This document shows positions 23,895-64,000 of a stretch of DNA of 64,000 bases, piece by piece. The notes under the pieces are model-generated. The model saw only the letters and a list, made by a program, of their open reading frames with translations. It searched no databases and was not told the origin of the DNA. A program made the translations under genes and the position numbers. Positions within the stretch are counted from its first letter, which is position 1, and the number at the start of each line of letters is the position of its first letter. Location: the IMG/VR virus record IMGVR_UViG_3300037419_001472, positions 1 to 64,000 of that record; one strand, written 5' to 3'. This DNA is from a virus.

Positions 23895-24638
23895 GTGGCG
23901 AAGCCAGACAAGCCGGGTCAAGAGATTGCCTGGAAGGGGCCAGACTCGCTCCGGTCCTTCCTCGTGCCCATCGATGAGTTGCATGAGGACCCGGCCAACA
24001 CGAACGACCATGATGACGAGTCGATCCGCCGCATTGCCGCGGCTTATGCCGCCTACGGTCAGCAGCGGTTTGTCGTCGGCGATGCCAGCAAGGTCGTCCG
24101 GGCCGGGAATGGGCAACTCGCGGCGGCGCGGCGGCTAGGGTGGACGCACCTGGCGTACAACGTGTCAGACCTCACCGGCACGGCCCTGACCGGCTTCGCC
24201 ATCGCGGACAACCGCACGGCCGAGTTCAGCAGCCGCAATGAGGAGCGTTTGGCCGAGATGCTCGAGGCGATCGCGACTGACCCCGCGGCGACCCTGGAGG
24301 CGACCGGCTACGAGCGATCCGAGCTGGATGACCTGCTGGAGAGGATCGGGGCCAAGGCCGCCGGCGATGAGGCCTCAGCCGGCGTCGAGGTCGATGACCC
24401 GATGGCTGAATGGCAGGGGATGCCCGAGTGTGAGAATGAGGACCAGAGTCCGTTCCGCACCCTGCGTATCCATTTTCGTTCAGCCGAGGATGTCCAGGAC
24501 TTCGCAAAGCTGCTCGGCCAGAAAATCACGGATGGGATCAAGTTCCTCTGGCACCCGAGGGCCGAGGCAGCCAACTGGAGCGCGAACCCTTACGTCGATG
24601 CCATTGACGAGGATGAACTGGGCGGCGATGAACCCTAG
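23895..24638 (+). CDS. ParB-like N-terminal (nuclease/CTPase fold) domain protein
   Basis: LVPIDELHEDPANTNDH...IAAAYAAYGQQRFVVG...VRAGNGQLAAARRLGW fits the ParB/Srx fold. GTG start is uncertain (the track gives TTG at 23856). Confidence 0.7.
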   Translation: MAKPDKPGQEIAWKGPDSLRSFLVPIDELHEDPANTNDHDDESIRRIAAAYAAYGQQRFVVGDASKVVRAGNGQLAAARRLGWTHLAYNVSDLTGTALTGFAIADNRTAEFSSRNEERLAEMLEAIATDPAATLEATGYERSELDDLLERIGAKAAGDEASAGVEVDDPMAEWQGMPECENEDQSPFRTLRIHFRSAEDVQDFAKLLGQKITDGIKFLWHPRAEAANWSANPYVDAIDEDELGGDEP

Positions 24639-25488
24639 ATACCCGGTTTACGTGATCTCGAAGGGGCGAGCGGATAACCTCATCACGCCCCGCTACCTGG
24701 CCAAGATGTCCGTCCCCTTCAGCCTCGTTATCGAGCCTCAGGAACAGGGCGCGTATGCCAGGGCCATGGCTGGGGCTGGGATCGATCCCGGACACCTGCT
24801 GATCCTACCGTTCCGCAATCTCGGCCAGGGATCGATCCCGGCGCGCAACTGGGTCTGGGACCACGCCCTGGCCGGTGGCCACGCGCGGCACTGGATCCTG
24901 GACGACAACATCCAGGGCTTCTATCGCTACCACGGCAACATCAAGCGCCATGTCTGGACCGGGGCCATCTTCGCAGCGGCTGAGGACTTCACGGACCGCT
25001 ACCTGAACGTCCGGCTGTCCGGGTTCCAGTACGAGATGTTCGTCCCCCGGCGCAAGGCATGGCCGCCCTTCTACGTCAACACTCGCATCTACTCGTGCAT
25101 CCTGATCGACAATGCCTGCCGCCACCGCTGGCGGGGCCGGTACAACGAGGACACCGACCTGTCGATCCGCGTGCTCAAGGACGGGGACTGCACGATCCTG
25201 TTCAATGCCTTCCTGGCAAACAAAATCGCCACGATGACCTGCAAGGGCGGCAACACGGACGAACTGTACCGGCAGGATGACCAGTTTGATGGCCGTCTCG
25301 AGATGGCCCGATCACTCCAGCGCCAGCATCCTGACATCGTCAAGATCACCCGCAAGTGGGGCCGCTGGCAGCACCACGTCGATTACCGACCCTTCAAGGG
25401 CAACAAGCTGATCCGCCGGCCCGACCTGTCGATCCCCCAGGGGATCGACAACTACGGCATGGTCCTGGCCAGGCCCGACGATTCCTGA
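24628..25488 (+). CDS. GT-A-like glycosyltransferase candidate (possibly a DNA-base glycosyltransferase type)
   Basis: VYVISKGRADN...LVIEPQE...WILDDNI (DxD-like)...NEDTDLSIR. Overlaps the ParB gene by 11 nt. Confidence 0.45.
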   Translation: MNPRYPVYVISKGRADNLITPRYLAKMSVPFSLVIEPQEQGAYARAMAGAGIDPGHLLILPFRNLGQGSIPARNWVWDHALAGGHARHWILDDNIQGFYRYHGNIKRHVWTGAIFAAAEDFTDRYLNVRLSGFQYEMFVPRRKAWPPFYVNTRIYSCILIDNACRHRWRGRYNEDTDLSIRVLKDGDCTILFNAFLANKIATMTCKGGNTDELYRQDDQFDGRLEMARSLQRQHPDIVKITRKWGRWQHHVDYRPFKGNKLIRRPDLSIPQGIDNYGMVLARPDDS

Positions 25489-26078: not shown

Positions 26079-26780
26079 ATGGAAAAGGTCAACCCCTGGG
26101 ATCAGCAGCGTGGCGAGTCCTCGCAGGCCTTCACGGCCTTCCGCGCCTACCTGGACTCACCCACCCCGCGCACGATCGTCGGCGCCTACCGCAAGTCCTC
26201 GGGCCGCCCGGACGCGGCCCAGGTCCCCGGCGCGTGGAGCCGCTGGAGCGCGAACCACGATTGGGTTGAGCGGGCCCGGCTCTGGGACACGAAACTGGCC
26301 CAGGCAACCCAGGCGGGGATCCTCAAGTCGGCCAAGTCGCGCGGTGAGCGGATGGCCTCGGGCCTAGACCAGGCGATCGAGTCGGCCTACGAGGCAGGTC
26401 TGGAGCTGATTGCCCAGGGCCGGCGGTACATCGCGATGCCAACGACCAGGACCGAACTGACCCGGCCGGCTGATGATGGTTCGCTCGCCCTGTACACGAT
26501 CGAGGCCGCCAACCCCAAGATCCACCGCTATGCCGGGCTGATGGTGCGGGATGGCCTGATGCTGGTCCAGACGGCCTATGAGCGGGTCGTCGCCCAGCAT
26601 CATGACGAGGACCGGAACGACCCTGAGACGGGTGAGGCCTCGGTCTCGCTGGCCAGGGCGGCCAGCGAGCTTGACCAGTTCATCGCCGAACATCGCGCCA
26701 AGATCCTGCAGATTCCCGATGAGCCGCCGGGCCTCGATCCGGACGATCCGGATGAGGACCTGAAGGCCGTGGGGACATGA
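26079..26780 (+). CDS. terminase small subunit
   Basis: ESSQAFTAFRAYLDSPTPRTI...WSRWSANHDWVERARLWD pattern, and position immediately upstream of TerL. Confidence 0.65.
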   Translation: MEKVNPWDQQRGESSQAFTAFRAYLDSPTPRTIVGAYRKSSGRPDAAQVPGAWSRWSANHDWVERARLWDTKLAQATQAGILKSAKSRGERMASGLDQAIESAYEAGLELIAQGRRYIAMPTTRTELTRPADDGSLALYTIEAANPKIHRYAGLMVRDGLMLVQTAYERVVAQHHDEDRNDPETGEASVSLARAASELDQFIAEHRAKILQIPDEPPGLDPDDPDEDLKAVGT

Positions 26781-26783
26781 GCG

Positions 26784-28358
26784 ATGGCAGCCGCGACGCT
26801 CGACCAGACGGATCCCCTGGCCGAGCCGGCGGCCCGCTTCGACCCTGACGCCGAGGTGGCCAAGTGCGCGGCGAACTGCGCCTACTTCATCAATGCCTAT
26901 GGAATTATTGATGATAGTCAGGGCCACGGCGAGAATGCCACCGGCACGATGCCGTTCCAGCTCTGGCCGGCCCAGGTCCGTCTGATCTGGGAGCTGATGG
27001 CGTTCCGCCTGCTCGTGCTGCTCAAGGCCCGCCAGCTCGGCATGAGCTGGGCCGTCTGTGGCTACGTGCTCTGGCGGTGCCTATTCCAGCGCGGGCAACT
27101 GATCTTTTTGCTCTCGAAGGGGCAGAAAGAGGCCAACGAGCTGCTGCGCCGGGTGAAGGCGATCTATCAGCGGCTGCCTCAATGGCTCCGCGACCGGCTG
27201 CCCCGGGTCGATCCGCGCAAGGACAATGCCAGCGAGATCCTCTGGACCAACGGGTCCTCGATCCAGTCGCTGCCCGCGACGCGCAACGCGGGCATCGGCA
27301 ACGCCGCGTCCGTCGTGGTGATGGATGAAGCCGCGCACATGAAGTATGGCGATGAGCTGTACCTCAACATCAAGCCGACGATCGACGCCGGCGGCCAGCT
27401 CATCCTGCTCTCGACGGCCAACGGGATCGGCGGCCTGTTCCACACGATCTGGGAGAAGGCGACCGAGGGGCTGAACGGTTTCCGGACCATCTTCATCCCC
27501 TGGTGGTGCCGGCCCGGCCGGGACCGCAAGTGGTTCCGGGCAAGGGTCGCGGAGTCCAACGACCCCAAGCTGATCCCGCAGAACTACCCGGCCAACCCGG
27601 TCGAGGCGTTCCTGGCCAGCGGCAACATGCGGTTCGATGCCGCATGGATCAATGCCCAGGCCCAGAACCTCCGCGAGCCGCTCGCGCCGGCCGAGTTGCC
27701 GCCCGCGCTGCGTGACATCCCTGGCCTCAAGGTCTGGACGCTGCCCCAGCCGGGGCGGTCCTACATCCTCGGCGGGGACGTGTCGGAGGGGCTGGAGACG
27801 GGCGACTATGATGCCTGCCCCGTGCTGGATGCCGAGACATGGGAACAGGTTGCCGAGATCCATGGGCACTGGGAGCCGGATGAGTACGCGGCCGCGCTCA
27901 TGAAGGTCGCGGACCACTACAACCACGCCTGGGTCGCCATCGAGCGGAACAACCACGGGCATGCGGTGCTGATCGCGTTCGCGCTGGCACGCGACCCGGA
28001 GACGGACGAGCCACGACCCTTCACGCGGGTCTACAACGGTGAGGATGGCCGCCCTGGCTTTTTGACCACGGCCAAGTCCAAGGGTCCGGGCGTGGACCTG
28101 ATCGCCGCGGCCCTGCGGGATGGCCTGGTGACGATCCGCTCGGTGGCGTTGCTGAATGAGCTGCGGCACTTCAAGCGGCTGCGCGGCGGCAAGCTGGGCG
28201 CGACCAAAGGCAAGCATGACGACCGCGTGATGGGTCTGCTGGTCGCTCTCTGCTCGCTGCGTCTCGGGCACCTGCGGCCATCTCAGGGCGCGCCGGCCGC
28301 CGGTGGCGGCGAGCGAAAGCCAACCTCGAAGTACCTGGGGCACCACCATGCCAGATGA
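26784..28358 (+). CDS. terminase large subunit
   Basis: KARQLGMSW ATPase motif, Walker B VVVMDEAAHM, and a C-terminal nuclease-like region. 524 aa. Confidence 0.85.
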   Translation: MAAATLDQTDPLAEPAARFDPDAEVAKCAANCAYFINAYGIIDDSQGHGENATGTMPFQLWPAQVRLIWELMAFRLLVLLKARQLGMSWAVCGYVLWRCLFQRGQLIFLLSKGQKEANELLRRVKAIYQRLPQWLRDRLPRVDPRKDNASEILWTNGSSIQSLPATRNAGIGNAASVVVMDEAAHMKYGDELYLNIKPTIDAGGQLILLSTANGIGGLFHTIWEKATEGLNGFRTIFIPWWCRPGRDRKWFRARVAESNDPKLIPQNYPANPVEAFLASGNMRFDAAWINAQAQNLREPLAPAELPPALRDIPGLKVWTLPQPGRSYILGGDVSEGLETGDYDACPVLDAETWEQVAEIHGHWEPDEYAAALMKVADHYNHAWVAIERNNHGHAVLIAFALARDPETDEPRPFTRVYNGEDGRPGFLTTAKSKGPGVDLIAAALRDGLVTIRSVALLNELRHFKRLRGGKLGATKGKHDDRVMGLLVALCSLRLGHLRPSQGAPAAGGGERKPTSKYLGHHHAR

Positions 28359-47969: not shown

Positions 47970-48398
47970 ATGATATTGCAACGATGCAACCATTGCCCCG
48001 TCGTCCCCGATCGGGAGTGCCTTGGGACCACTGCGGCGTTCGGCTACATGTGCGAATTCGCCCAGAGCGAGGATCCGGTCAAAGTCCGGCATGTCGTCGA
48101 GCGATCGGCGATCGGAGTAGATCCCCAACCGCCTGGGATGATCGCGCGGACGGCATCGCTCGCTGTCGCAGTCGTGGCGCACATCGCAACCGGCATGCAT
48201 CGCGTGGACGACGCAGTTAGGGACGCCCGGCTGGCGATTTGCCAGACGAACGAATGCGGCCACTACCGGACCGAGGAAGGGGCGCCGGCCTGCCTGGCAT
48301 GCGGGTGCGGACGGCGGGGCCTGGAGATCAAGGCCGGGTGGGCCGAGCAGCAGTGCCCGCTCGACCCACCGCGGTGGGGGCCGGTTGAGGTTACTTGA
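47970..48398 (+). CDS. Cys-rich small protein
   Basis: CNHCP...C and ICQTNECGHY...CLACGCG...CP motifs. Start uncertain (47970, 48048 or 48138). Confidence 0.35.
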   Translation: MILQRCNHCPVVPDRECLGTTAAFGYMCEFAQSEDPVKVRHVVERSAIGVDPQPPGMIARTASLAVAVVAHIATGMHRVDDAVRDARLAICQTNECGHYRTEEGAPACLACGCGRRGLEIKAGWAEQQCPLDPPRWGPVEVT

Positions 48399-49968
48399 CC
48401 TCGCGCTGGCCCAGGTGGGCCTTGTAGAACGGCTGATTGACGTCGGTCGTGTTGAAGCCCTCGCTCGGCTGGGGCGAAACGCCCTGGACCGTGTCGAGCG
48501 TGCTGGTCACGACCATGCCGCTCCGGGCGAAAAGCGTCACGAGCCGACGGTCATTTTTGAGCACCGGCGCCGGCGAAGCCGTGGCCGGCGGATAATTCCC
48601 GGGCCCCGGAGTGGTGCCCGCCATCGCGTCGGCGTCCAGCGGCAGCTCGTAGTAAGTCACGCTCGCCGTGTTTGCCGGGTTCGGGTTCGGGACTCCCGCA
48701 GTGGTCCCCCAGACGGCTCCGCGCGCGTAGACGTCCTCGCGGGCCGCGAGCCAGAAGTCCAGGAACGGAATGGGGTTCATCGATGTCGCCGACGAGTACA
48801 TCGTCGTGGGCACGTAACTGCCGTTCGGATTGAGCATCACGTCAACCGAAAGCGATCCAGGGTCGACCGGCAAGCGCGACCGTTCCTGGAGTTTGTTCCA
48901 GGATGTCGCGTCGATCACCACGCCGGCCGGCAGGAGGATCTCACGTCCACCGGGCGTGGGCACAGGCCGTCGTTCGATTGAGTAGGCGGAATCCCAAAAG
49001 TGAGACTTACCGTTGCCGTTGGCCCATGCTGGCGAAGGGCTGAACGCTGAGGGAGCAGAGTCGCGGAGATTCCCAACGTTGAGTCCCACCCAGTCCTCGC
49101 GCTCCGTCCACTCCAGGGCGTCGTCTACGACCCCATCAGCGTTCTGGTCGTATCCATCCCATCCCTGGTCGACATAGCCGTCGTGGTCGTCGTCCTCTCC
49201 GTTGACCAAAAACAGAAACTCGGGCGTCGGCGGATTGGGGATCGGATTGCCAGCGGAGTCGTAGTAGGTCCGGACCAGAGGCGATGGTGTGCCAGGAGGG
49301 CCGACATTGACGAACCACTCGAGATTGCCCTGGTTGATTGCCAGAGGTGCCTTCGGATTGATCGTGCAAGGGCCAACGACCGTGTAAGCGCGGCCCGTGT
49401 CGCCGAACTTGATCTTGTCGCCCACCCTCACATTCCACCACCAGTTGACCGGCTCGTTGGGAATGGCGCCCGGTGTGATGAATCCGCCCACAAAGGGGGA
49501 CTCTTCGATCATGAGCACGTTTGCTGGCGTGCTGGAGTCGGGAAACGGATAGGTCGCGCCGTTGGTGATCGGATGGGCCGGAGGAAAGGTGGCCGTCGCC
49601 CCTCCAGGAGGTAGCTGGGGGCCGACACTGAACTTGCCGGCGGTATAGTCGGCGGCTGGCTCAATCGGGATCAGTCGGTTGTAGGCAAGCTGAAGCGTGC
49701 CGGCACCGACCGTGCCGACCGCCGGAAGCGTGAGCATAGGGTCGGGCATGAGCCGCAGGCCACGCGGCTCATTCTGGCGGATGGCCGCGTCCCTCGCCCC
49801 CGCAATCGCCCCCGTCAAGACCTGAGCCGCGTCGGTTATGCTTCGCCCTGTCAGTGAGTCGCGGATCAGGGGCAGCGCGATAAGCGACGCAATCAGGATG
49901 ATCGCGAGAACCACCAAGATCTCAACGAGCGTAAACCCTGGGCGGCGGTGACGTGATCGGCGGAACAT
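48391..49968 (-). CDS. prepilin-type N-terminal cleavage/methylation domain protein, large minor-(pseudo)pilin-like
   Basis: RRPG/FTLVEILVVLAIILIASLIAL prepilin signal. 525 aa. Acidic Ca-binding-like NGEDDDHDGYVDQGWDGYDQNADGVVDD. Confidence 0.8.
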   Translation of the reverse strand: MFRRSRHRRPGFTLVEILVVLAIILIASLIALPLIRDSLTGRSITDAAQVLTGAIAGARDAAIRQNEPRGLRLMPDPMLTLPAVGTVGAGTLQLAYNRLIPIEPAADYTAGKFSVGPQLPPGGATATFPPAHPITNGATYPFPDSSTPANVLMIEESPFVGGFITPGAIPNEPVNWWWNVRVGDKIKFGDTGRAYTVVGPCTINPKAPLAINQGNLEWFVNVGPPGTPSPLVRTYYDSAGNPIPNPPTPEFLFLVNGEDDDHDGYVDQGWDGYDQNADGVVDDALEWTEREDWVGLNVGNLRDSAPSAFSPSPAWANGNGKSHFWDSAYSIERRPVPTPGGREILLPAGVVIDATSWNKLQERSRLPVDPGSLSVDVMLNPNGSYVPTTMYSSATSMNPIPFLDFWLAAREDVYARGAVWGTTAGVPNPNPANTASVTYYELPLDADAMAGTTPGPGNYPPATASPAPVLKNDRRLVTLFARSGMVVTSTLDTVQGVSPQPSEGFNTTDVNQPFYKAHLGQREVK

Positions 49969-55858: not shown

Positions 55859-56221
55859 ATGCCCGCGCTGCTGAGCCAGCCCCCGATGCCGCGAGCCAAG
55901 AGCGACCCCGCGGCGTTGTTCGACCCCGAGTGCTGGATCTATGACCCGGTGGCTCGCGTGGGGATCCCCCGGGAGACGATCCGGCCCTGCTCGTGCGGCT
56001 CGACCGGATTCGTGCTGATCCTGAGGGGTGACGGGACGACGACCTTCCCGGTCCATTGCGCGGCGTGCTATGTCGAGCCGCGATTCCGGATGGCTCGCCC
56101 TGATGACCTGGATTACGCGACGCTCGACGTCGGCACCGGCCGCGTGACGTACACGCGGGATGCCGCCGAGATCAACCGACACCGCCGCATGGCGGAAGCG
56201 AGGGCGAAGAGTGGGCGCTAA
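55859..56221 (+). CDS. Cys-containing hypothetical protein (120 aa)
   Basis: Start preceded by GTGAGGCGAGCGACC. CSC...CAAC motifs. Confidence 0.5.
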   Translation: MPALLSQPPMPRAKSDPAALFDPECWIYDPVARVGIPRETIRPCSCGSTGFVLILRGDGTTTFPVHCAACYVEPRFRMARPDDLDYATLDVGTGRVTYTRDAAEINRHRRMAEARAKSGR

Positions 56222-57251
56222 CTCGAAGATCGAATGGACCGACCACACGTTCAACCCCTGGCGGGGCTGTACGAAGGTCAGCCCCGGCTGTGCCAACTGC
56301 TACGCCGACACGCAGAGCAAACGCAACCCGAAGCTGCTCGGCGTCTGGGGCCCGAACGGGACGCGCGTCGTCGCGGCCGACGCGAAGTGGCGCGAGCCGC
56401 TCGCCTGGGACAAGGCCGCGGCCGAGGCGGGCCGGCGGCATCGCGTGTTCTGTGCCAGCCTGGCTGATGTGTTCGAGGATTGGCGGGGGCCGCTCCACGA
56501 CGTGAAGGGCGAACGCCTCTTCAGTTACGTGGACGTGAACGCTTCGGCCATCGACGGCTCGGTGGGCGCGACCCTGGATACTGCCAGGGCGAAGCTCTTC
56601 CAGTTGATCCGGCGGACGCCCTCGCTGGACTGGCTGGTGCTGACGAAGCGGCCGGAGAACGTCCTGCATCATCTCCGGGCCGCCGCCCATTGGGTCGACG
56701 GCGAGGGCGAAGATTGCCGCTGGCTCGACGCCTGGCACCACGGCGACGCCCCCGCGAACGTCCGGCTCGGGACCTCGGTCGAGGACCGCAAGCACGGCCT
56801 GCCCCGCGTGGACGTGCTCCGCAAGATCCCCGCCCAGATCCGGTTCCTCTCGGTCGAGCCGCTGCTGGAAGACCTCGGCGAGATCGACCTGACGGGGATC
56901 CACTGGGTCATCGTCGGGGGCGAGAGCGGCCCGGGCGCGCGGCCCATGCACCCCGATTGGGTCCGCTCGATCCGCGACCAGTGCCTGGCGCAAGGGGTCG
57001 CCTTTTTCTTCAAGCAATGGGGCTGCTGGCGGCCCGACGGCCAGGGGCATCCGTTCCTGAAGGATGCCATCAATTCCCGCGACGCACACCCGGCCGCGGC
57101 GGTCCTGCCCGACGGCCGCGTGCTCCCCGACATCAGCGAGATCGGGGCCAACGGCGACGGGGCCGCCGTCGTGCGCCGCATGGACAAGAAGGACGCCGGC
57201 CGGATGCTGGACGGCATGCTCTGGAGCGAGTTCCCCCAGCCCGTGAGTTGA
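56211..57251 (+). CDS. phage Gp37/Gp68 family protein (DUF5131)
   Basis: SKIEWTDHTFNPWRGCTKVSPGCANCYA is the hallmark N-terminus. GTG start. Confidence 0.85.
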   Translation: MGANSKIEWTDHTFNPWRGCTKVSPGCANCYADTQSKRNPKLLGVWGPNGTRVVAADAKWREPLAWDKAAAEAGRRHRVFCASLADVFEDWRGPLHDVKGERLFSYVDVNASAIDGSVGATLDTARAKLFQLIRRTPSLDWLVLTKRPENVLHHLRAAAHWVDGEGEDCRWLDAWHHGDAPANVRLGTSVEDRKHGLPRVDVLRKIPAQIRFLSVEPLLEDLGEIDLTGIHWVIVGGESGPGARPMHPDWVRSIRDQCLAQGVAFFFKQWGCWRPDGQGHPFLKDAINSRDAHPAAAVLPDGRVLPDISEIGANGDGAAVVRRMDKKDAGRMLDGMLWSEFPQPVS

Positions 57252-58648: not shown

Positions 58649-59128
58649 GTGCGCGGGATCACTCTGCATCAACCCTATGCCTCGCTGATCGCCCTGGGCG
58701 TGAAGACCTACGAGACGAGGTCCTGGGCGACGAAGTACCGCGGCCCGCTGCTGATCCATGCGGGCAAGAAATGGGACTCGGAGGTCATCGCCAACTGCCG
58801 CCGGGCCGCTGCCGCCCTGAGGGCATCGGGGCATGACCTCGACTTCCGGGTGATGCTGGGCAAGGTCGTTTGCCTGGCCCGACTGGACGGCTGCGTGCTC
58901 TCGCGTGGGCCGTCCCACTTCCCCGCAATGGATCAGGTCTTCGGCGACCTGACGACCGGCCGGTATGGCTGGCGGCTGATCGACGTCCACCGGCTCATCC
59001 CGGCCATCCCCTACTCGGGCAGCCAGGGACTCTGGATCCCCTCACCCGCGCTGGTGGCAAGGCTGCATGGGCCGGTCGCCGCGCTCAACCACCCCAAGCT
59101 GTTCCCCGCCAAGGAGTCTGTTCGATGA
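58649..59128 (+). CDS. ASCH (PUA-like) domain protein
   Basis: GITLHQPYASLIALGVKTYETRSW...GLW fits the ASCH pattern. Confidence 0.7.
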   Translation: MRGITLHQPYASLIALGVKTYETRSWATKYRGPLLIHAGKKWDSEVIANCRRAAAALRASGHDLDFRVMLGKVVCLARLDGCVLSRGPSHFPAMDQVFGDLTTGRYGWRLIDVHRLIPAIPYSGSQGLWIPSPALVARLHGPVAALNHPKLFPAKESVR

Positions 59129-59547
59129 CGACCGTCATCAACGTCCGGGGCCGAAAGCGGGCGGAACTCGAGGCTGACCCGGATTTCATCTACGTCGGCC
59201 GCCGCGTCCCCCGCGCCGGCTGGCCTGATTCCCCATGGGGGAACCCATTCAAGGTCGGCATGGACTCGATCGAGGCCGTGAGGCTCTTCGACCATTGGGG
59301 GCAATCCGGGATTGTGGACCGGCAGGTCATCTGCGTAATCGATGAGGCGACCCTCGACGCCGAGGCGGCGGTCGAGTTCTGTCGCCAGTGGGTTGTCTCC
59401 TGCCCAGCGCTCCGGGCCCGGCTCCCCGAGCTGCGGGGCAAGATCCTCGGTTGCTGGTGCTGTGACTGGGATGGGACGGGCGAGCCCTCCAGGCCGTGCC
59501 ATGCCGTGATCCTCGCCCGACTCGCTGATGAGGGTTTGATTCGATGA
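59125..59547 (+). CDS. DUF4326 domain protein
   Basis: FIYVGRR...SPWGNPF...LRGKILGCWCC...CHAVILA. ATGA overlap with the ASCH gene. Confidence 0.75.
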   Translation: MTTVINVRGRKRAELEADPDFIYVGRRVPRAGWPDSPWGNPFKVGMDSIEAVRLFDHWGQSGIVDRQVICVIDEATLDAEAAVEFCRQWVVSCPALRARLPELRGKILGCWCCDWDGTGEPSRPCHAVILARLADEGLIR

Positions 59548-61501: not shown

Positions 61502-62410
61502 GTGACGATTCGCGCGACGATCATTGAGGATTCGATCAGCCCCGCTGGCGCCCGGCTGACGACGTTCGAACTGTGCTACCCCAGGGTCATCCACGCCGAG
61601 TTCATGACCCACCGGGTCTTCAGCCGCAATGCCAGCTCGAGCCGGGCCATTCCCTGGGCCCGGATGAAACAGTGGATCCTCGACGACCCCTATGTCCCGA
61701 TCCACTGGGGCAAGAACCAGAAGGGCATGCAAGCGACCGAGGAATTGACGGAGGATGAGCAGAAGGCGGCCCGCAAGTTGTGGCTCGAGGCCAGCTATGA
61801 TGCCGTTGGCCACGCCGACCGCCTCATGTCCCTCGGCATCCACAAGCAGATCGTCAACCGGCTGGTCGAGCCCTTCGGCCACATCAACGTCATCTGCACG
61901 GCGACAGACTTCGCCAACTTCTTCGCCCTGCGGATCCACAAGGCCGCGATGCCCGAGATCCAGTGCCTGACCGTCCGCATGGCCCGCGCCTACGCGGCGA
62001 GCGGGCCCGATCTGCGGCGAATGGATGCCGATGACCCCCATTGCTGGCACCTGCCCTACGTCTCGACGGCCGAGCGCGAGACGTTCTCGCTGAATAACCT
62101 CCTGGCCATGTCCTCAGCCCGCTGCGCCCGCGTCTCCTACCGGACGCACGAGGGCAAGGCCCCGACGCTCGAGGAAGACCTGAAGCTGTTCGAGCAGCTC
62201 GTCGGCGGTGAGCCGAAGCATGCGACGCCGACCGAGCACCAGGCCGTCCCGCTCGCGAGGGTCATCGGGGCCGGCATCGCCTCGAGCATGACCGGGAACC
62301 TCCGCGGCTGGTTCCAGCACCGCAAGCAGATCCAGGGCGAGGCGGCCCGGCCGGACTTCGACTGGCGGGCCCGGCTCGTCGAGTGGGACGGCGTCGATTA
62401 CGTCGTCTGA
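61502..62410 (+). CDS. thyX: ThyX-like flavin-dependent thymidylate synthase
   Basis: FMTHRVFSRNASSSRAIP corresponds to the ThyX RHRxxSxxxxSxR motif with R changed to T. 302 aa, longer than typical ThyX. GTG start. Confidence 0.6.
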   Translation: MTIRATIIEDSISPAGARLTTFELCYPRVIHAEFMTHRVFSRNASSSRAIPWARMKQWILDDPYVPIHWGKNQKGMQATEELTEDEQKAARKLWLEASYDAVGHADRLMSLGIHKQIVNRLVEPFGHINVICTATDFANFFALRIHKAAMPEIQCLTVRMARAYAASGPDLRRMDADDPHCWHLPYVSTAERETFSLNNLLAMSSARCARVSYRTHEGKAPTLEEDLKLFEQLVGGEPKHATPTEHQAVPLARVIGAGIASSMTGNLRGWFQHRKQIQGEAARPDFDWRARLVEWDGVDYVV

Positions 62411-62458: not shown

Positions 62459-64000
62459 ATGAGCATCGCCGACACCAACCGGCCCGCGGCGACCGCGACG
62501 GCCCCCGCCCGGGGGCTGACGATCCAACCCTATTTCTGCCCGCCGGACTGCAACCCCTACGCTCGGATCGGCTGGCGCACCGTGACGGCCCAGATCAAGG
62601 GGGATGACGGCCGGTTGATCTTCGAGCAGCCCAGCGTCGAGGTTCCCGAGGACTGGTCCGACCGGGCCGCCAACATCGTCGCCAGCAAGTATTTTTATGG
62701 CGACCTGTCGAAGGGATTCGACCCCACCCAGGGAGGGCGCGAGCATTCCGTGAGTCAACTCATCGGCCGGGTCTGCAACACGATCGCACACTGGGGCAAA
62801 GTGGATGGATACTTCGCCACGGCCGCGGATGCAGTCCAGTACCGGGAGGAGTTGGCGGCGCTGTGCCTCGGCCAGTATGGCGCATTCAACTCGCCGGTCT
62901 GGTTCAATGTCGGCCTGAGCCAGGAATACCACCTCAAGGGAGCAGCGAATAACTGGCGCTGGCATAAGGGGGAGGGACGGGCGGTCCCGTGCCTGGATGC
63001 CTACGAGTACCCCCAGGGCTCGGCCTGTTTCATCCAGAGCGTCGCGGATGACATGGGATCGATCATGGATCTGGCCCGTTCCGAGGCCATGCTGTTCAAG
63101 TATGGCTCGGGCACCGGGACTGACCTGTCGACGCTCCGCAGCACCAAGGAAAAGCTCCAGGGGGGTGGCAAGCCGAGCGGCCCGGTCAGCTTCATGCGGG
63201 TCTACGATGCGATTGCCGGCGTCGTCAAGTCGGGCGGGAAGTGCCTCGCCCCGGACCAGCCGATCCTGACCGATCGGGGAGTGAAGCCGGTCGGCGACCT
63301 GGCCGACCTCGAAGGCGGGTTCGTCGTGCTGTCCTACTCGCGCCGGCTCGGCCGGGTCGCGGCGAAGCGGGCGCATGCCTGGTGTTCCGGGGTCAAGCCG
63401 GTCATCTCCGTCATCACGGACAAGGGCGAATTCCGGGTTTCTCACGATCACCCGATGATGCTGAAGGATGGCATCTGGAAGCGGGCCGCCGACCTGAAGC
63501 CCGGCATGAGCCTGATGCAGGTCAGCACGGATCGCCACAAGGATGGCTATGTCCGCGTCGGACTCCAGGACGGCATGAAGGGGAAGGCCCTGTTCCATCA
63601 GCTCGTTGCCAAGGACATCCTCCGCTGGGATCTCCAGGGCAAGATCGTCCATCACGAGAACAAGGACAAGGGCGACAACCGGCCGGAAAACCTGCGGCTG
63701 AAGACCCAGGCCGAGCATGCCGCCGATCACGGGCGAGGCCGGGCGTTCTACACCGATGGGCATCCTGGCGAGCGGAACGGTATGCATGCCTCATCCGCGT
63801 TCTGGTCGGACTCCGAGCGGTCCAGCGAGTACCGCCTCAAGCAATCCGCGGTCCTGAAGCGGCGCAACCCAGCCATGCTCCAGAAGGCAGCAGTCCGCAA
63901 GCGGATGCTCAACCTCGGATATTCGCTCATCAACGCGGGGCATGACCTCTCGACGTTCGCCGGTTACGTCCTCGCCCGCAAGGCCGAGGGCCGACGCTGC
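62459..64000 (+). CDS. nrdJ: class II (B12-dependent) ribonucleotide reductase NrdJ, interrupted by an intein; partial (runs off window)
   Basis: Self-translated because the frame is open to the window end and absent from the track. Motifs: VEVPEDWSDRAANIVASKYF, NSPVWFNVG, GSACFIQSV, FKYGSGTGTDLSTLRS, GGGKPSGPVSFMRVYDAIAGVVKSGGK, then Cys. Confidence 0.85.
   Translation, partial: MSIADTNRPAATATAPARGLTIQPYFCPPDCNPYARIGWRTVTAQIKGDDGRLIFEQPSVEVPEDWSDRAANIVASKYFYGDLSKGFDPTQGGREHSVSQLIGRVCNTIAHWGKVDGYFATAADAVQYREELAALCLGQYGAFNSPVWFNVGLSQEYHLKGAANNWRWHKGEGRAVPCLDAYEYPQGSACFIQSVADDMGSIMDLARSEAMLFKYGSGTGTDLSTLRSTKEKLQGGGKPSGPVSFMRVYDAIAGVVKSGGKCLAPDQPILTDRGVKPVGDLADLEGGFVVLSYSRRLGRVAAKRAHAWCSGVKPVISVITDKGEFRVSHDHPMMLKDGIWKRAADLKPGMSLMQVSTDRHKDGYVRVGLQDGMKGKALFHQLVAKDILRWDLQGKIVHHENKDKGDNRPENLRLKTQAEHAADHGRGRAFYTDGHPGERNGMHASSAFWSDSERSSEYRLKQSAVLKRRNPAMLQKAAVRKRMLNLGYSLINAGHDLSTFAGYVLARKAEGRRC
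63242..64000 (+). mobile_element. intein with HNH homing-endonuclease domain inserted after KSGGK of NrdJ (C-terminal end beyond window)
   Basis: Block A CLAPDQPILTDRG, block B-like FRVSHDHPMML, and HNH motif IVHHENKDKGDNRPENLRLKTQAEH. The expected extein continuation TRR.. is absent at the junction. Confidence 0.8.

Follow-up and report, generated by a model that had tools for sequence, protein, structure and literature searches.

A ParB-fold adaptor gene overlapping a TAGT-family glycosyltransferase gene upstream of a phage terminase: a candidate two-subunit DNA-directed glycosyltransferase

This report concerns a pair of overlapping phage genes in the window, which is the whole 64,000-nucleotide stretch of viral DNA that was analysed (positions 1 to 64,000 of IMG/VR virus record IMGVR_UViG_3300037419_001472). 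Gene 1 encodes a ParB-fold domain followed by a small adaptor module, and gene 2 encodes a GT-A glycosyltransferase of the TAGT family. Both lie upstream of the terminase genes, and their products are candidates for the two subunits of a DNA-directed glycosyltransferase. The first-pass annotation, made from the sequence alone, had described two open reading frames overlapping by 11 nucleotides (nt), the second of 286 amino acids (aa), and these coordinates are confirmed. The features of the pair are as follows.

23895-24638, plus strand: gene 1, ParB-N/adaptor-module protein of 247 aa, GTG start at 23895 and TAG stop; open reading frame, PHROG ParB-like matches, AlphaFold2 and Foldseek.
23925-24374, plus strand: ParB/Noc/KorB-fold N-terminal domain, residues ~11-160; AlphaFold2 confidence (pLDDT) 92-98, Foldseek.
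23988-24011 (DPxN..H), 24054-24065 (YGQQ), 24102-24116 (AGNGQ) and 24204-24215 (ADNR), plus strand: subfamily signature in gene 1.
24375-24392, plus strand: start of an acidic low-confidence linker (pLDDT 53-55 for residues 161-190) that extends into the first residues of the module profile match.
24393-24596, plus strand: TAGT-associated adaptor module, residues 167-234; profile match, and homologous to the extensions at the N-terminus of Vibrio-phage TAGTs.
24411-24431 (W-Q-G-M-P-E-C) and 24543-24557 (F-L-W-H-P, then P-Y-V-D), plus strand: module motifs.
24628-24638, plus strand: conserved 11-nt start/stop overlap ATGAACCCTAG; the ATG of gene 2 lies inside gene 1, which ends GAT GAA CCC TAG.
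24628-25488, plus strand: gene 2, TAGT-family GT-A glycosyltransferase of 286 aa, from ATG 24628 to TGA; PF20691, phrog_842 and invariant motifs.
24640-25251, plus strand: Pfam TAGT domain (PF20691) in gene 2.
24886-24909, plus strand: RHWILDDN motif, with ILDDN at residues 90-94.
25126-25164, plus strand: RWRGRYNEDTDLS motif, with NEDTD at residues 173-177.

Gene 2 matches the Pfam TAGT family (PF20691) over profile positions 1-205 of 205, with E=4.6e-37 and 128.4 bits against a cutoff of 27.5, and it also matches phrog_842. The ILDDN and NEDTD motifs fall within invariant columns of a 12-sequence alignment of the family. The GT-A signature is kept as R-H-W-I-L-D-D-N and R-Y-N-E-D-T-D-L-S, the latter in the wider context RWRGRY-NEDTD-LS. 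The catalytic motif of phage GT-A enzymes has been given as R...DDD...EDY/F (Pyle et al.), and a GT-A fold has been reported for the T6 TAGT (PMC13216743). At least 8,000 homologues of gene 2 were found, the best of them 63-77% identical. The earlier assignment of a GT-A-type enzyme with a DxD-like ILDDN and an acidic NEDTD motif is borne out by these matches, and the comparison with TET-associated glycosyltransferases that it proposed leads to exactly that family.

Gene 1 gave no Pfam match even at E<=1, PF02195 included, and many of its homologues do carry PF02195. Its ParB-like PHROG matches (620, 498 and 723) range from E=1e-21 to 3e-16. The AlphaFold2 model has a mean pLDDT of 85, rising to 92-98 over residues 11-160, and Foldseek relates it with probability 1.0, over ~140-160 residues, to Noc, the ParBs of M. 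xanthus and C. crescentus, KorB, PadC and Spo0J. The PDB matches are Noc 7nfu (6.5e-6), M. xanthus ParB 7bnk and KorB 8qa9. Profile and structure therefore agree with the ParB N-terminal domain that had been called in the first open reading frame. Starting gene 1 at TTG 23856 instead would lengthen the protein to 260 aa; public gene call P0121 also uses 23895.

In alignment, the subfamily of this ParB-N domain has the signature DPxN..H, FGQQ, AGNG (near-invariant) and ADNR. The A-G-N-G-Q of gene 1 aligns with the Box II S-G-E-R-R of the phage's own partition ParB. Since AGNGQ replaces SGERR, both Box II phosphate-binding arginines are gone from gene 1, and the ParB-N domain is therefore unlikely to be a canonical CTPase. 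The Box II arginine is required for nucleoside triphosphate (NTP) binding in ParB-fold proteins (Kaljevic et al.), and NTP-site mutants of ParB176, the activator of a phage dioxygenase, stay functional (PMC13229309).

Gene 1 encodes a ParB-fold protein that is not a partition ParB, because it has no Pfam match to HTH_ParB or to a ParB C-terminal dimerisation domain, its neighbours are not ParA, and a genuine ParA/ParB pair lies elsewhere. This pair is found in the left flank of the same phage, outside the window (L013 15860-17571), where a protein with ParB_N, HTH_ParB and a GERR Box II has a CbiA-type ParA as its neighbour. Other proteins join a ParB-N domain of the gene 1 subfamily to an N6/N4 DNA methylase, and further members have a zinc ribbon or another small domain in the C-terminal position. 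YnaK of E. coli corresponds to the ParB-N part only and has a DNA-level match in 1,594 of 5,426 complete E. coli genomes.

The C-terminal position of gene 1 is taken by a beta-alpha-beta module, its last ~50-55 residues, which follows the pattern W-x-GMPE...LWHP and has no matching Pfam model. In a BLASTP comparison of gene 1 with the 389-aa TAGT of Vibrio phage 1.076.O, the ParB domain is unmatched and the last ~50 residues (WQGMPEC...FAKLLGQKITDGIKFLWHP) align to the N-terminal extension of the TAGT. The module segment of Vibrio phage henriette is a separate unannotated 108-aa open reading frame directly 5' of an unannotated TAGT. Both frames of henriette 12B8 (NC_021073; L003 7639-7965 and 8070-8819) are missing from the RefSeq annotation, in which the VPDG_00024 tag is skipped, and the reading frame is apparently interrupted between them.

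Hidden Markov models (HMMs) were built for the module, ParB-N and TAGT and scanned on two independent sets of TAGT loci, 80 from IMG/VR and 76 from species-representative genomes. The module stands directly upstream of the TAGT in 64/70 viral loci and adjoins it in 51 of the 59 genomic loci with enough upstream sequence. Five arrangements are seen: the module alone as a 70-130-aa protein; an N-terminal fusion to the TAGT, sometimes as tandem paralogues; the module behind ParB-N, as in the window; the module behind divergent ParB-like N-domains; and ParB_N, module and TAGT in a single frame. The ParB-N-module form is the largest genomic class (20/59 loci), and ParB-type adjacency to the TAGT is found in about 22-31 of 70 viral loci. 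The triple fusion occurs in L060 and in one genomic locus. Module-TAGT fusions that end in a C-terminal domain of the uracil-DNA glycosylase (UDG) superfamily are present in L027 (9596-11284) and L065 (9280-11019).

Searched against 1.84 billion representative proteins, the module profile matches 3,109 clusters; E is 1e-10 or lower for 1,954 of these, and the best 150 of the 3,109 include 95 ParB-module proteins and 30 modules alone. Among ParB-like homologues of gene 1, the module is confined to the TAGT-linked subset and never occurs in the ParB-N/N6-N4-methylase fusions. The sequence comparisons identify the module, which the first-pass annotation did not notice, as the constant partner of this TAGT branch; ParB-N is optional and goes with the site beside the terminase. 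The pairing of TAGT with the module or ParB recurs in phages of many bacterial phyla. Tandem module copies exist in relatives; when one natural module-module-TAGT protein was modelled, both modules came out as confident beta-alpha-beta units (pLDDT ~95), held by flexible linkers.

The reading frame of gene 2 is +1 relative to gene 1, and the overlap is exactly 11 nt. This geometry is widespread. Of the unfused loci, 84/105 place the TAGT in the +1 frame, and in 68 loci, the window included, the upstream stop starts exactly 4 nt 5' of the Tyr codon of the P-x-Y-P-V-Y-V motif. The TAGT ATG is placed 12 nt 5' of that Tyr codon in 61 of the 68 (again with the window), which results in the identical 11-nt overlap. 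The overlap motif across the 61 loci is ATGAAYCCTAR, with the consensus G-ATG-AAT-CCT-AA-A, translated as D-E-S-stop in the upstream frame and M-N-P-K in the downstream frame. All three stop codons occur among the 68 split loci (TAA 36, TAG 20, TGA 12). The Pro codon at the junction is CCT in 60/68 split loci, whereas fused genes vary freely among CCA, CCG, CCC and CCT. The stop position is therefore maintained by selection.

As judged from this comparison, the 11-nt overlap is a family hallmark rather than a product of chance. ATG 24628 is likely the true start of gene 2, since the comparative junction data prefer it to ATG 24613, at which public gene call P0001 begins. The simplest reading of the junction is termination-reinitiation coupling of two subunits. 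Shine-Dalgarno-like motifs, examined as a test of coupling, are present in only 20/60 loci and are indecisive.

The packaging genes of the window lie downstream of the pair.

26079-26780, plus strand: small terminase subunit (TerS); PHROG and Pfam terminase matches.
26784-28358, plus strand: large terminase subunit (TerL); PHROG and Pfam terminase matches, with the portal gene next (Portal_Mu in public gene calls).

The terminase-adjacent position goes with the ParB-type N-domain. A TerL start is found within 3.5 kb downstream in 29/38 loci that have a ParB-type N-domain on the module, compared with 4/28 for the module alone, 2/16 for module-TAGT fusions and 2/9 for loci with no module. The difference between ParB-type loci and the others (8/53) gives a Fisher's exact p of 4.7e-9 and an odds ratio of 18. 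The module-alone and module-TAGT forms are mostly away from structural genes, in replication or nucleotide-metabolism regions, and the cassette of Vibrio phage 1.076.O lies between portal and head-morphogenesis genes. Besides the module, the TAGT has as its only recurrent neighbours TerLs from at least 3-4 lineages unrelated to each other, small proteins encoded between the TAGT and the TerL, portals, replication genes and, in six loci, an NDP-sugar epimerase/dehydratase. TerL, portal and capsid types vary across the cassette-bearing phages.

Related cassettes are present in cultured phages and prophages. The exact architecture of the window, a ParB-module gene followed by a TAGT gene, is found in cultured Enterobacterales prophages (L151 5316-6870 in Pantoea stewartii ATCC 8199, NZ_CP046558.1 near 3.605 Mb; L150; L157). 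The cultured 38-kb temperate Lactobacillus gasseri phage phi jlb1 (NC_024206; L178 12746-14321) has a ParB-like gene, jlb1_024, and a TAGT gene, jlb1_025, with the 11-nt overlap and the +1 frame; the gene order is ParB-like gene, TAGT, TerS, TerL and portal. The ParB-N of phi jlb1 groups with the gene 1 subfamily (E~1e-35); the C-terminal domain and the TAGT of this phage are divergent. The C-terminal domain of the phi jlb1 ParB gives no match to the module HMM, and a second adaptor type may therefore exist. Module-bearing TAGTs also occur in T4-like Aeromonas phages (Aeromonas phage 65) and in the Ackermannviridae phage Kuja.

Natural fusions and the conserved junction make it very probable that gene 1 and gene 2 are functionally coupled. 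Based on these observations, we propose that the two genes encode one late-expressed, translationally coupled two-subunit DNA-directed glycosyltransferase, a reading to which we give a probability of about 0.55. Gene 2 would be the catalytic GT-A subunit, using a nucleoside diphosphate (NDP)-sugar donor and the conserved DDN and NEDTD acidic motifs, and gene 1 would be a non-catalytic adaptor or activator. The beta-alpha-beta module would act as a TAGT-specific docking element. ParB-N would engage DNA or the packaging context and open duplex phage DNA to the enzyme, by analogy with ParB176 and its dioxygenase 5mYOX176. The 11-nt stop/start overlap would couple the translation of both subunits, and the site at the head of the terminase operon would lead to modification of the DNA just before or during packaging. 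We infer the subunit interaction, the DNA acceptor, the activation by ParB-N and the timing. Earlier authors proposed that ParB guides modification during packaging (quoted in PMC8256090).

DNA is the likely acceptor. It is favoured because both the fused domains (ParB-N, UDG superfamily) and what is known of characterised family members indicate DNA: phage GT-A enzymes are active on 5-hydroxymethylcytosine (5hmC) (Pyle et al.), and the T2/T6 enzyme acts on DNA post-replication (PMC13216743, PMC13390438). It is rated no higher than likely because GREB1, an animal protein of the same Pfam family as TAGT, modifies protein and no acceptor pathway is visible. The first-pass annotation had also suggested a DNA-directed glycosylation step, which gains from the TAGT family assignment, the coupling and the DNA-handling fusions. 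Its further suggestion, that the substrate base may come from the ThyX-like and deazaguanine genes of the genome, is not supported, as described below.

Several observations weigh against a two-subunit enzyme acting on DNA. Family membership alone leaves the acceptor class undecided, as GREB1 works in the cytoplasm as an O-GlcNAc transferase whose protein substrate is ER-alpha (PMC7968844). The structural model of a 47%-identical TAGT homologue (P0242), not of the window protein, finds weak generic GT-A/NDP-sugar-transferase matches in the PDB (Foldseek E>=1e-3, TM<=0.5), and since these matches are too weak, the acceptor class is not readable from structure. It had been suggested that best structural matches to polysaccharide or teichoic-type glycosyltransferases would speak against DNA glycosylation. 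Such matches do not discriminate, given that the homologue model yields only weak generic ones and that TarP, a teichoic-acid glycosyltransferase, is the top PDB match even for phage GT-A enzymes proven to glycosylate DNA (Pyle et al.). The model of the window ParB-module protein forms only the helix of the module, which suggests that the module strands need a partner.

The absence of a visible precursor pathway is a further point on the same side. The genome was closed as a ~78.2-kb circle from the window and two flanking loci. It was searched with Pfam on ~55 open reading frames, with PHROGs on all unassigned open reading frames concatenated, by phmmer with the TET of Nonlabens phage P12024L, and through precomputed Pfam matches in both flanks. 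At this sequence-profile level, no TET/JBP, ThyA-like hydroxymethylase or C5-methylase was found in the ~78-kb genome, which extends to the whole genome the earlier remark that no TET/JBP or hydroxymethylase was recognised. The complete 47.6-kb Vibrio phage 1.124.O, which has a module-TAGT fusion and no ParB, annotates no hydroxymethylase or oxygenase, and the 54 genes of phi jlb1 include no annotated base-modifying precursor gene.

The same two-subunit enzyme could instead act on 5hmC or 5-hydroxymethyluracil (5hmU) from an unrecognised source, such as a divergent dioxygenase among the unassigned open reading frames, ThyX as a dUMP hydroxymethylase, or the host. A 5-hydroxymethyl acceptor is used by every TAGT or JGT-type enzyme characterised so far, and phage 5mYOX contigs missed by the Pfam TET_JBP model number in the thousands (PMC13229309). 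When flanks of up to 10 kb (viral set) or 6 kb (genomic set) were searched, TET was found near module-TAGT pairs in only 2 of ~141 related loci (L023, L166). The candidate ThyX is the following gene.

61502-62410, plus strand: ThyX-family gene; PHROG 85 'thymidylate synthase' at 5e-80, Pfam Thy1 weak and partial at 1e-9.

The weak and partial Thy1 match speaks for this candidate; the strong PHROG match and the HRxxS...SxR motif, which is kept as judged by eye, argue the other way, as does the absence of co-occurrence with the TAGT in 82 other loci. We know of no ThyX-type hydroxymethylase. The Pfam, PHROG and phage-TET searches are negative in the closed genome, and phi jlb1, with its 54 genes, has very little unassigned coding space in which a source could lie. 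Hydroxymethyl-pyrimidines are expected in T4-like Aeromonas phages and Ackermannviridae, and the TAGT branch is compatible with such acceptors but needs no phage-encoded source. On balance we regard a hydroxymethyl acceptor as doubtful for the window.

It is unlikely that the acceptor is a protein, either a packaging or virion component encoded downstream or the conserved Q-x-I-T-x-K-T-K-S stretch of the module itself, with ParB-N a mere scaffold. Other GT-A enzymes do modify proteins or themselves (NleB/SseK, glycogenin), as does GREB1 within the TAGT family (PMC7968844). The position beside terminase and portal genes in 29/38 ParB-type loci, the place between portal and head-morphogenesis genes in Vibrio phage 1.076.O and the lack of a DNA acceptor pathway would all fit a protein target. 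However, every recognisable fused domain handles DNA (methylase-type ParB-N, UDG superfamily), and the module-alone and module-TAGT forms are rarely TerL-adjacent (12-14%), being located in replication and nucleotide-metabolism regions. There is also no conserved protein target, since TerL, portal and capsid types differ among the cassette phages.

A third alternative, compatible with any acceptor, concerns the junction and is quite improbable: the overlap could be a programmed +1 frameshift site (CCC-U in the window, UCC-U in most relatives) yielding a minor ParB-module-TAGT product like the L060 fusion. Both UCC-UGA (as in antizyme) and CCC-stop are contexts known to be prone to +1 shifts. 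The prevalent +1 frame (84/105), the stop at an identical nucleotide in 68 loci, a last sense codon of the form NCC in 60/68 (TCC 39, CCC 11), the scarcity of Shine-Dalgarno-like motifs and the viability of natural in-frame fusions are all consistent with frameshifting. In the window, a slip at CCC-UAG-A would read ...D-E-P-R-Y-P-V-Y-V and restore the conserved TAGT N-terminus. On the other hand, no stimulatory element was found, though no search aimed at one was made, the in-frame ATG that 61/68 loci have precisely 12 nt 5' of the Tyr codon is what termination-reinitiation predicts, the NCC codon is also imposed by the conserved Asn-Pro of the TAGT, which is common to fused genes, and a single ancestral split under purifying selection would explain the pattern. 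Finally, it is extremely improbable that the adjacency is incidental, with gene 1 a packaging protein of the common YnaK-type ParB/Srx kind encoded upstream of terminases and the TAGT an independent moron: ParB/Srx N-domain genes are indeed widespread without a TAGT, as YnaK and standalone homologues with other tails show, but the restriction of the module to TAGT-linked ParB homologues, the triple fusions and the junction conserved to the nucleotide argue against this.

The two-subunit DNA-directed glycosyltransferase can be compared with several known systems. The T2/T6 beta-glucosyl-HMC-alpha-glucosyltransferase, the first characterised TAGT, is also phage-encoded and shares the Pfam family and the GT-A fold class. 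It adds a second glucose onto glucosyl-5hmC in genomes with gp42-made 5hmC and an alpha-glucosyltransferase, whereas the window has no 5hmC pathway and no alpha- or beta-glucosyltransferase and instead has an obligate module and a ParB partner. Tblastn searches from the window TAGT or the Aeromonas phage 65 protein fail to reach the T2/T6 TAGT. The TET/JBP-linked TAGTs and the kinetoplastid JGT are likewise GT-A DNA glycosyltransferases with R...DD(D/N)...ED-type motifs. The TET/JBP-linked TAGTs are short, lack the module and lie beside the substrate-making oxygenase. One of them, of 252 aa, is found in Nonlabens phage P12024L, which has a classic TET-TAGT-methylase cluster; the TAGT branch of the window is only ~23% identical to it. 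GREB1 is relevant to this comparison only as a caution on acceptor class.

The closest parallel for gene 1 is ParB176, which is needed for the action of the phage thymine dioxygenase 5mYOX176 on double-stranded DNA and has a ParB fold without an obvious DNA-binding domain (PMC13229309). Both proteins have a ParB nucleotide-binding domain without a DNA-binding domain, both are encoded beside a DNA-modifying enzyme, and their closest structural relatives (M. xanthus and C. crescentus ParB) are common to the two. The NTP-site residues, seemingly dispensable in ParB176, are lost in gene 1. Unlike that system, the partner in the window is a glycosyltransferase and not an iron/2-oxoglutarate dioxygenase, and the genome has no dioxygenase. 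Behind the nucleotide-binding domain, ParB176 has a ParB C-terminal dimerisation domain that its activating role requires, whereas gene 1 has the ~55-aa beta-alpha-beta module, which also exists alone or fused to the enzyme. Dependence of the enzyme on ParB has been reported for 5mYOX176 and is inferred for the window TAGT. The phage- and prophage-encoded ParB-N/N6-N4 methyltransferase fusions (PF02195 + PF01555; cf. Kaljevic et al. preprint) contain the same ParB-N subfamily (AGNG/AGHG, ADNR), with 44-47% identity over the N-domain. They differ in that the effector is a methylase, fused directly with no adaptor module.

There are precedents for TAGT, for ParB-fold proteins that partner DNA-modifying enzymes and for orphan phage GT-A genes. 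ParB, terminase and epimerase have been listed among the gene neighbours of phage GT-A genes, and ~65% of ~25,000 phage glycosyltransferase contigs are without a neighbouring 5mYOX or ThyS (Pyle et al.). 'Solitary' TAGTs of undefined function have been reported in 288/753 phage genomes (PMC13216743). In the literature searched, which did not include Iyer et al. 2013, there is no description of the module, its near-obligate association with TAGT, the terminase-tied ParB-module architecture or the 11-nt junction, and glycosyltransferases are never mentioned in a survey of the ParB fold (Kaljevic et al.). The orphan TAGT class thus gains a defined anatomy, with a constant ~55-aa module, an optional ParB-N marking the terminase-adjacent version and a nucleotide-conserved junction. 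The partnership of the ParB fold with DNA-modifying enzymes would be extended from dioxygenases to glycosyltransferases. Tractable phages are available in phi jlb1 (38 kb) and the Pantoea stewartii ATCC 8199 prophage, both with ParB and TAGT, and in Vibrio phage 1.124.O with its module-TAGT fusion.

A more speculative and rather unlikely extension is that the module/ParB-TAGT cassette glycosylates a canonical base or another universal DNA position at the handover to the terminase, with no hydroxymethyl-pyrimidine precursor. With an acceptor other than a hydroxymethyl base, the DNA modification would be of a new kind and would bear on restriction and CRISPR evasion as well as on sequencing artefacts. 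Glycosylation of a canonical base or of another such universal position would found a new chemical class and would explain most orphan phage GT-A contigs.

Additional observations concern the TAGT loci. Tandem module-TAGT paralogues are found in L059 (868-3004), L061 (8674-10816), L063 (9650-12263) and L098 (3581-6269; Vibrio phage Kuja gp033/gp032), and suggest that two sugars are added step by step or that there are two specificities. The UDG-superfamily domain occurs as a separate upstream open reading frame in L070 (8231-8722). It is possibly a base-flipping or recognition partner and may hint at a uracil- or 5hmU-type acceptor in the L027, L065 and L070 phages. An NAD-dependent NDP-sugar epimerase/dehydratase directly follows the TAGT in six loci (e.g. 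L050 1886-2815). A pair of SNF2-family helicase and N6/N4 methylase genes is found in the window at 3918-6252 on the minus strand, 18 kb from the TAGT, and such a pair is directly beside the TAGT in three unrelated viral contigs (L019 6019-9649; L032 8719-11187; L067 3056-5565).

The left arm of the genome encodes NADAR, the phrog_15826 gene, QueE, DUF1643, a helix-turn-helix protein, an N6/N4 methylase, the SNF2 helicase, DnaN and DUF932. The right arm encodes Rad52, a DnaD-like protein, DnaB, DUF5131, ASCH, DUF4326, RusA, the ThyX-family protein, a class II ribonucleotide reductase, a second N6/N4 methylase, an HNH protein and a PhoH-like ATPase, with ParAB beyond. The closed circle and the canonical ParAB suggest a plasmid-prophage lifestyle. 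The deazaguanine-related genes are as follows.

1399-2052, minus strand: QueE; E=7.8e-70 to B. multivorans QueE, PDB 4NJG.
800-1399, 2048-2710 and 233-787, minus strand: genes flanking QueE, namely the phrog_15826 gene, a DUF1643 protein and a NADAR-domain protein.

No FolE, QueD, QueC or DpdA/TGT profile match was found in the ~78-kb genome, and the largest unassigned open reading frames are without PDB relatives. A 7-deazaguanine DNA modification system was rejected, as QueE stands alone without DpdA/TGT, FolE, QueD or QueC. Of the ThyX-like and deazaguanine genes noted at first pass, the former is present and the latter reduce to a lone QueE with no DpdA. None of ThyX, QueE, DUF1643, DUF5131 and NADAR co-occurs with the TAGT in the 82 other loci, and a link of the TAGT to any of them was rejected. 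The proposal that these genes may supply the substrate base is not supported, given this pattern and the lack of a detectable DpdA. NADAR domains reverse DarT-type DNA ADP-ribosylation, and the NADAR protein of the window may be an anti-defence gene.

The replication arm contains DUF5131 (phage Gp37/Gp68 family), ASCH and DUF4326 genes (56160-57251 and 58649-59547, plus strand), with no TAGT link elsewhere. The class II (B12-dependent) ribonucleotide reductase gene at 62459-64000 on the plus strand runs off the right end of the window and continues in L179 (11339-16450). The full protein has 1,703 aa and is split by an intein-splicing domain and two HNH_3 homing-endonuclease domains. The G+C content of the window is 66%. 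At the end of the structural region, 48391-49968 on the minus strand encodes a 525-aa protein whose N-terminus bears a prepilin-type methylation motif; we take the protein to resemble the abundant planctomycete N_methyl/DUF1559 proteins, and it may hint at the host.

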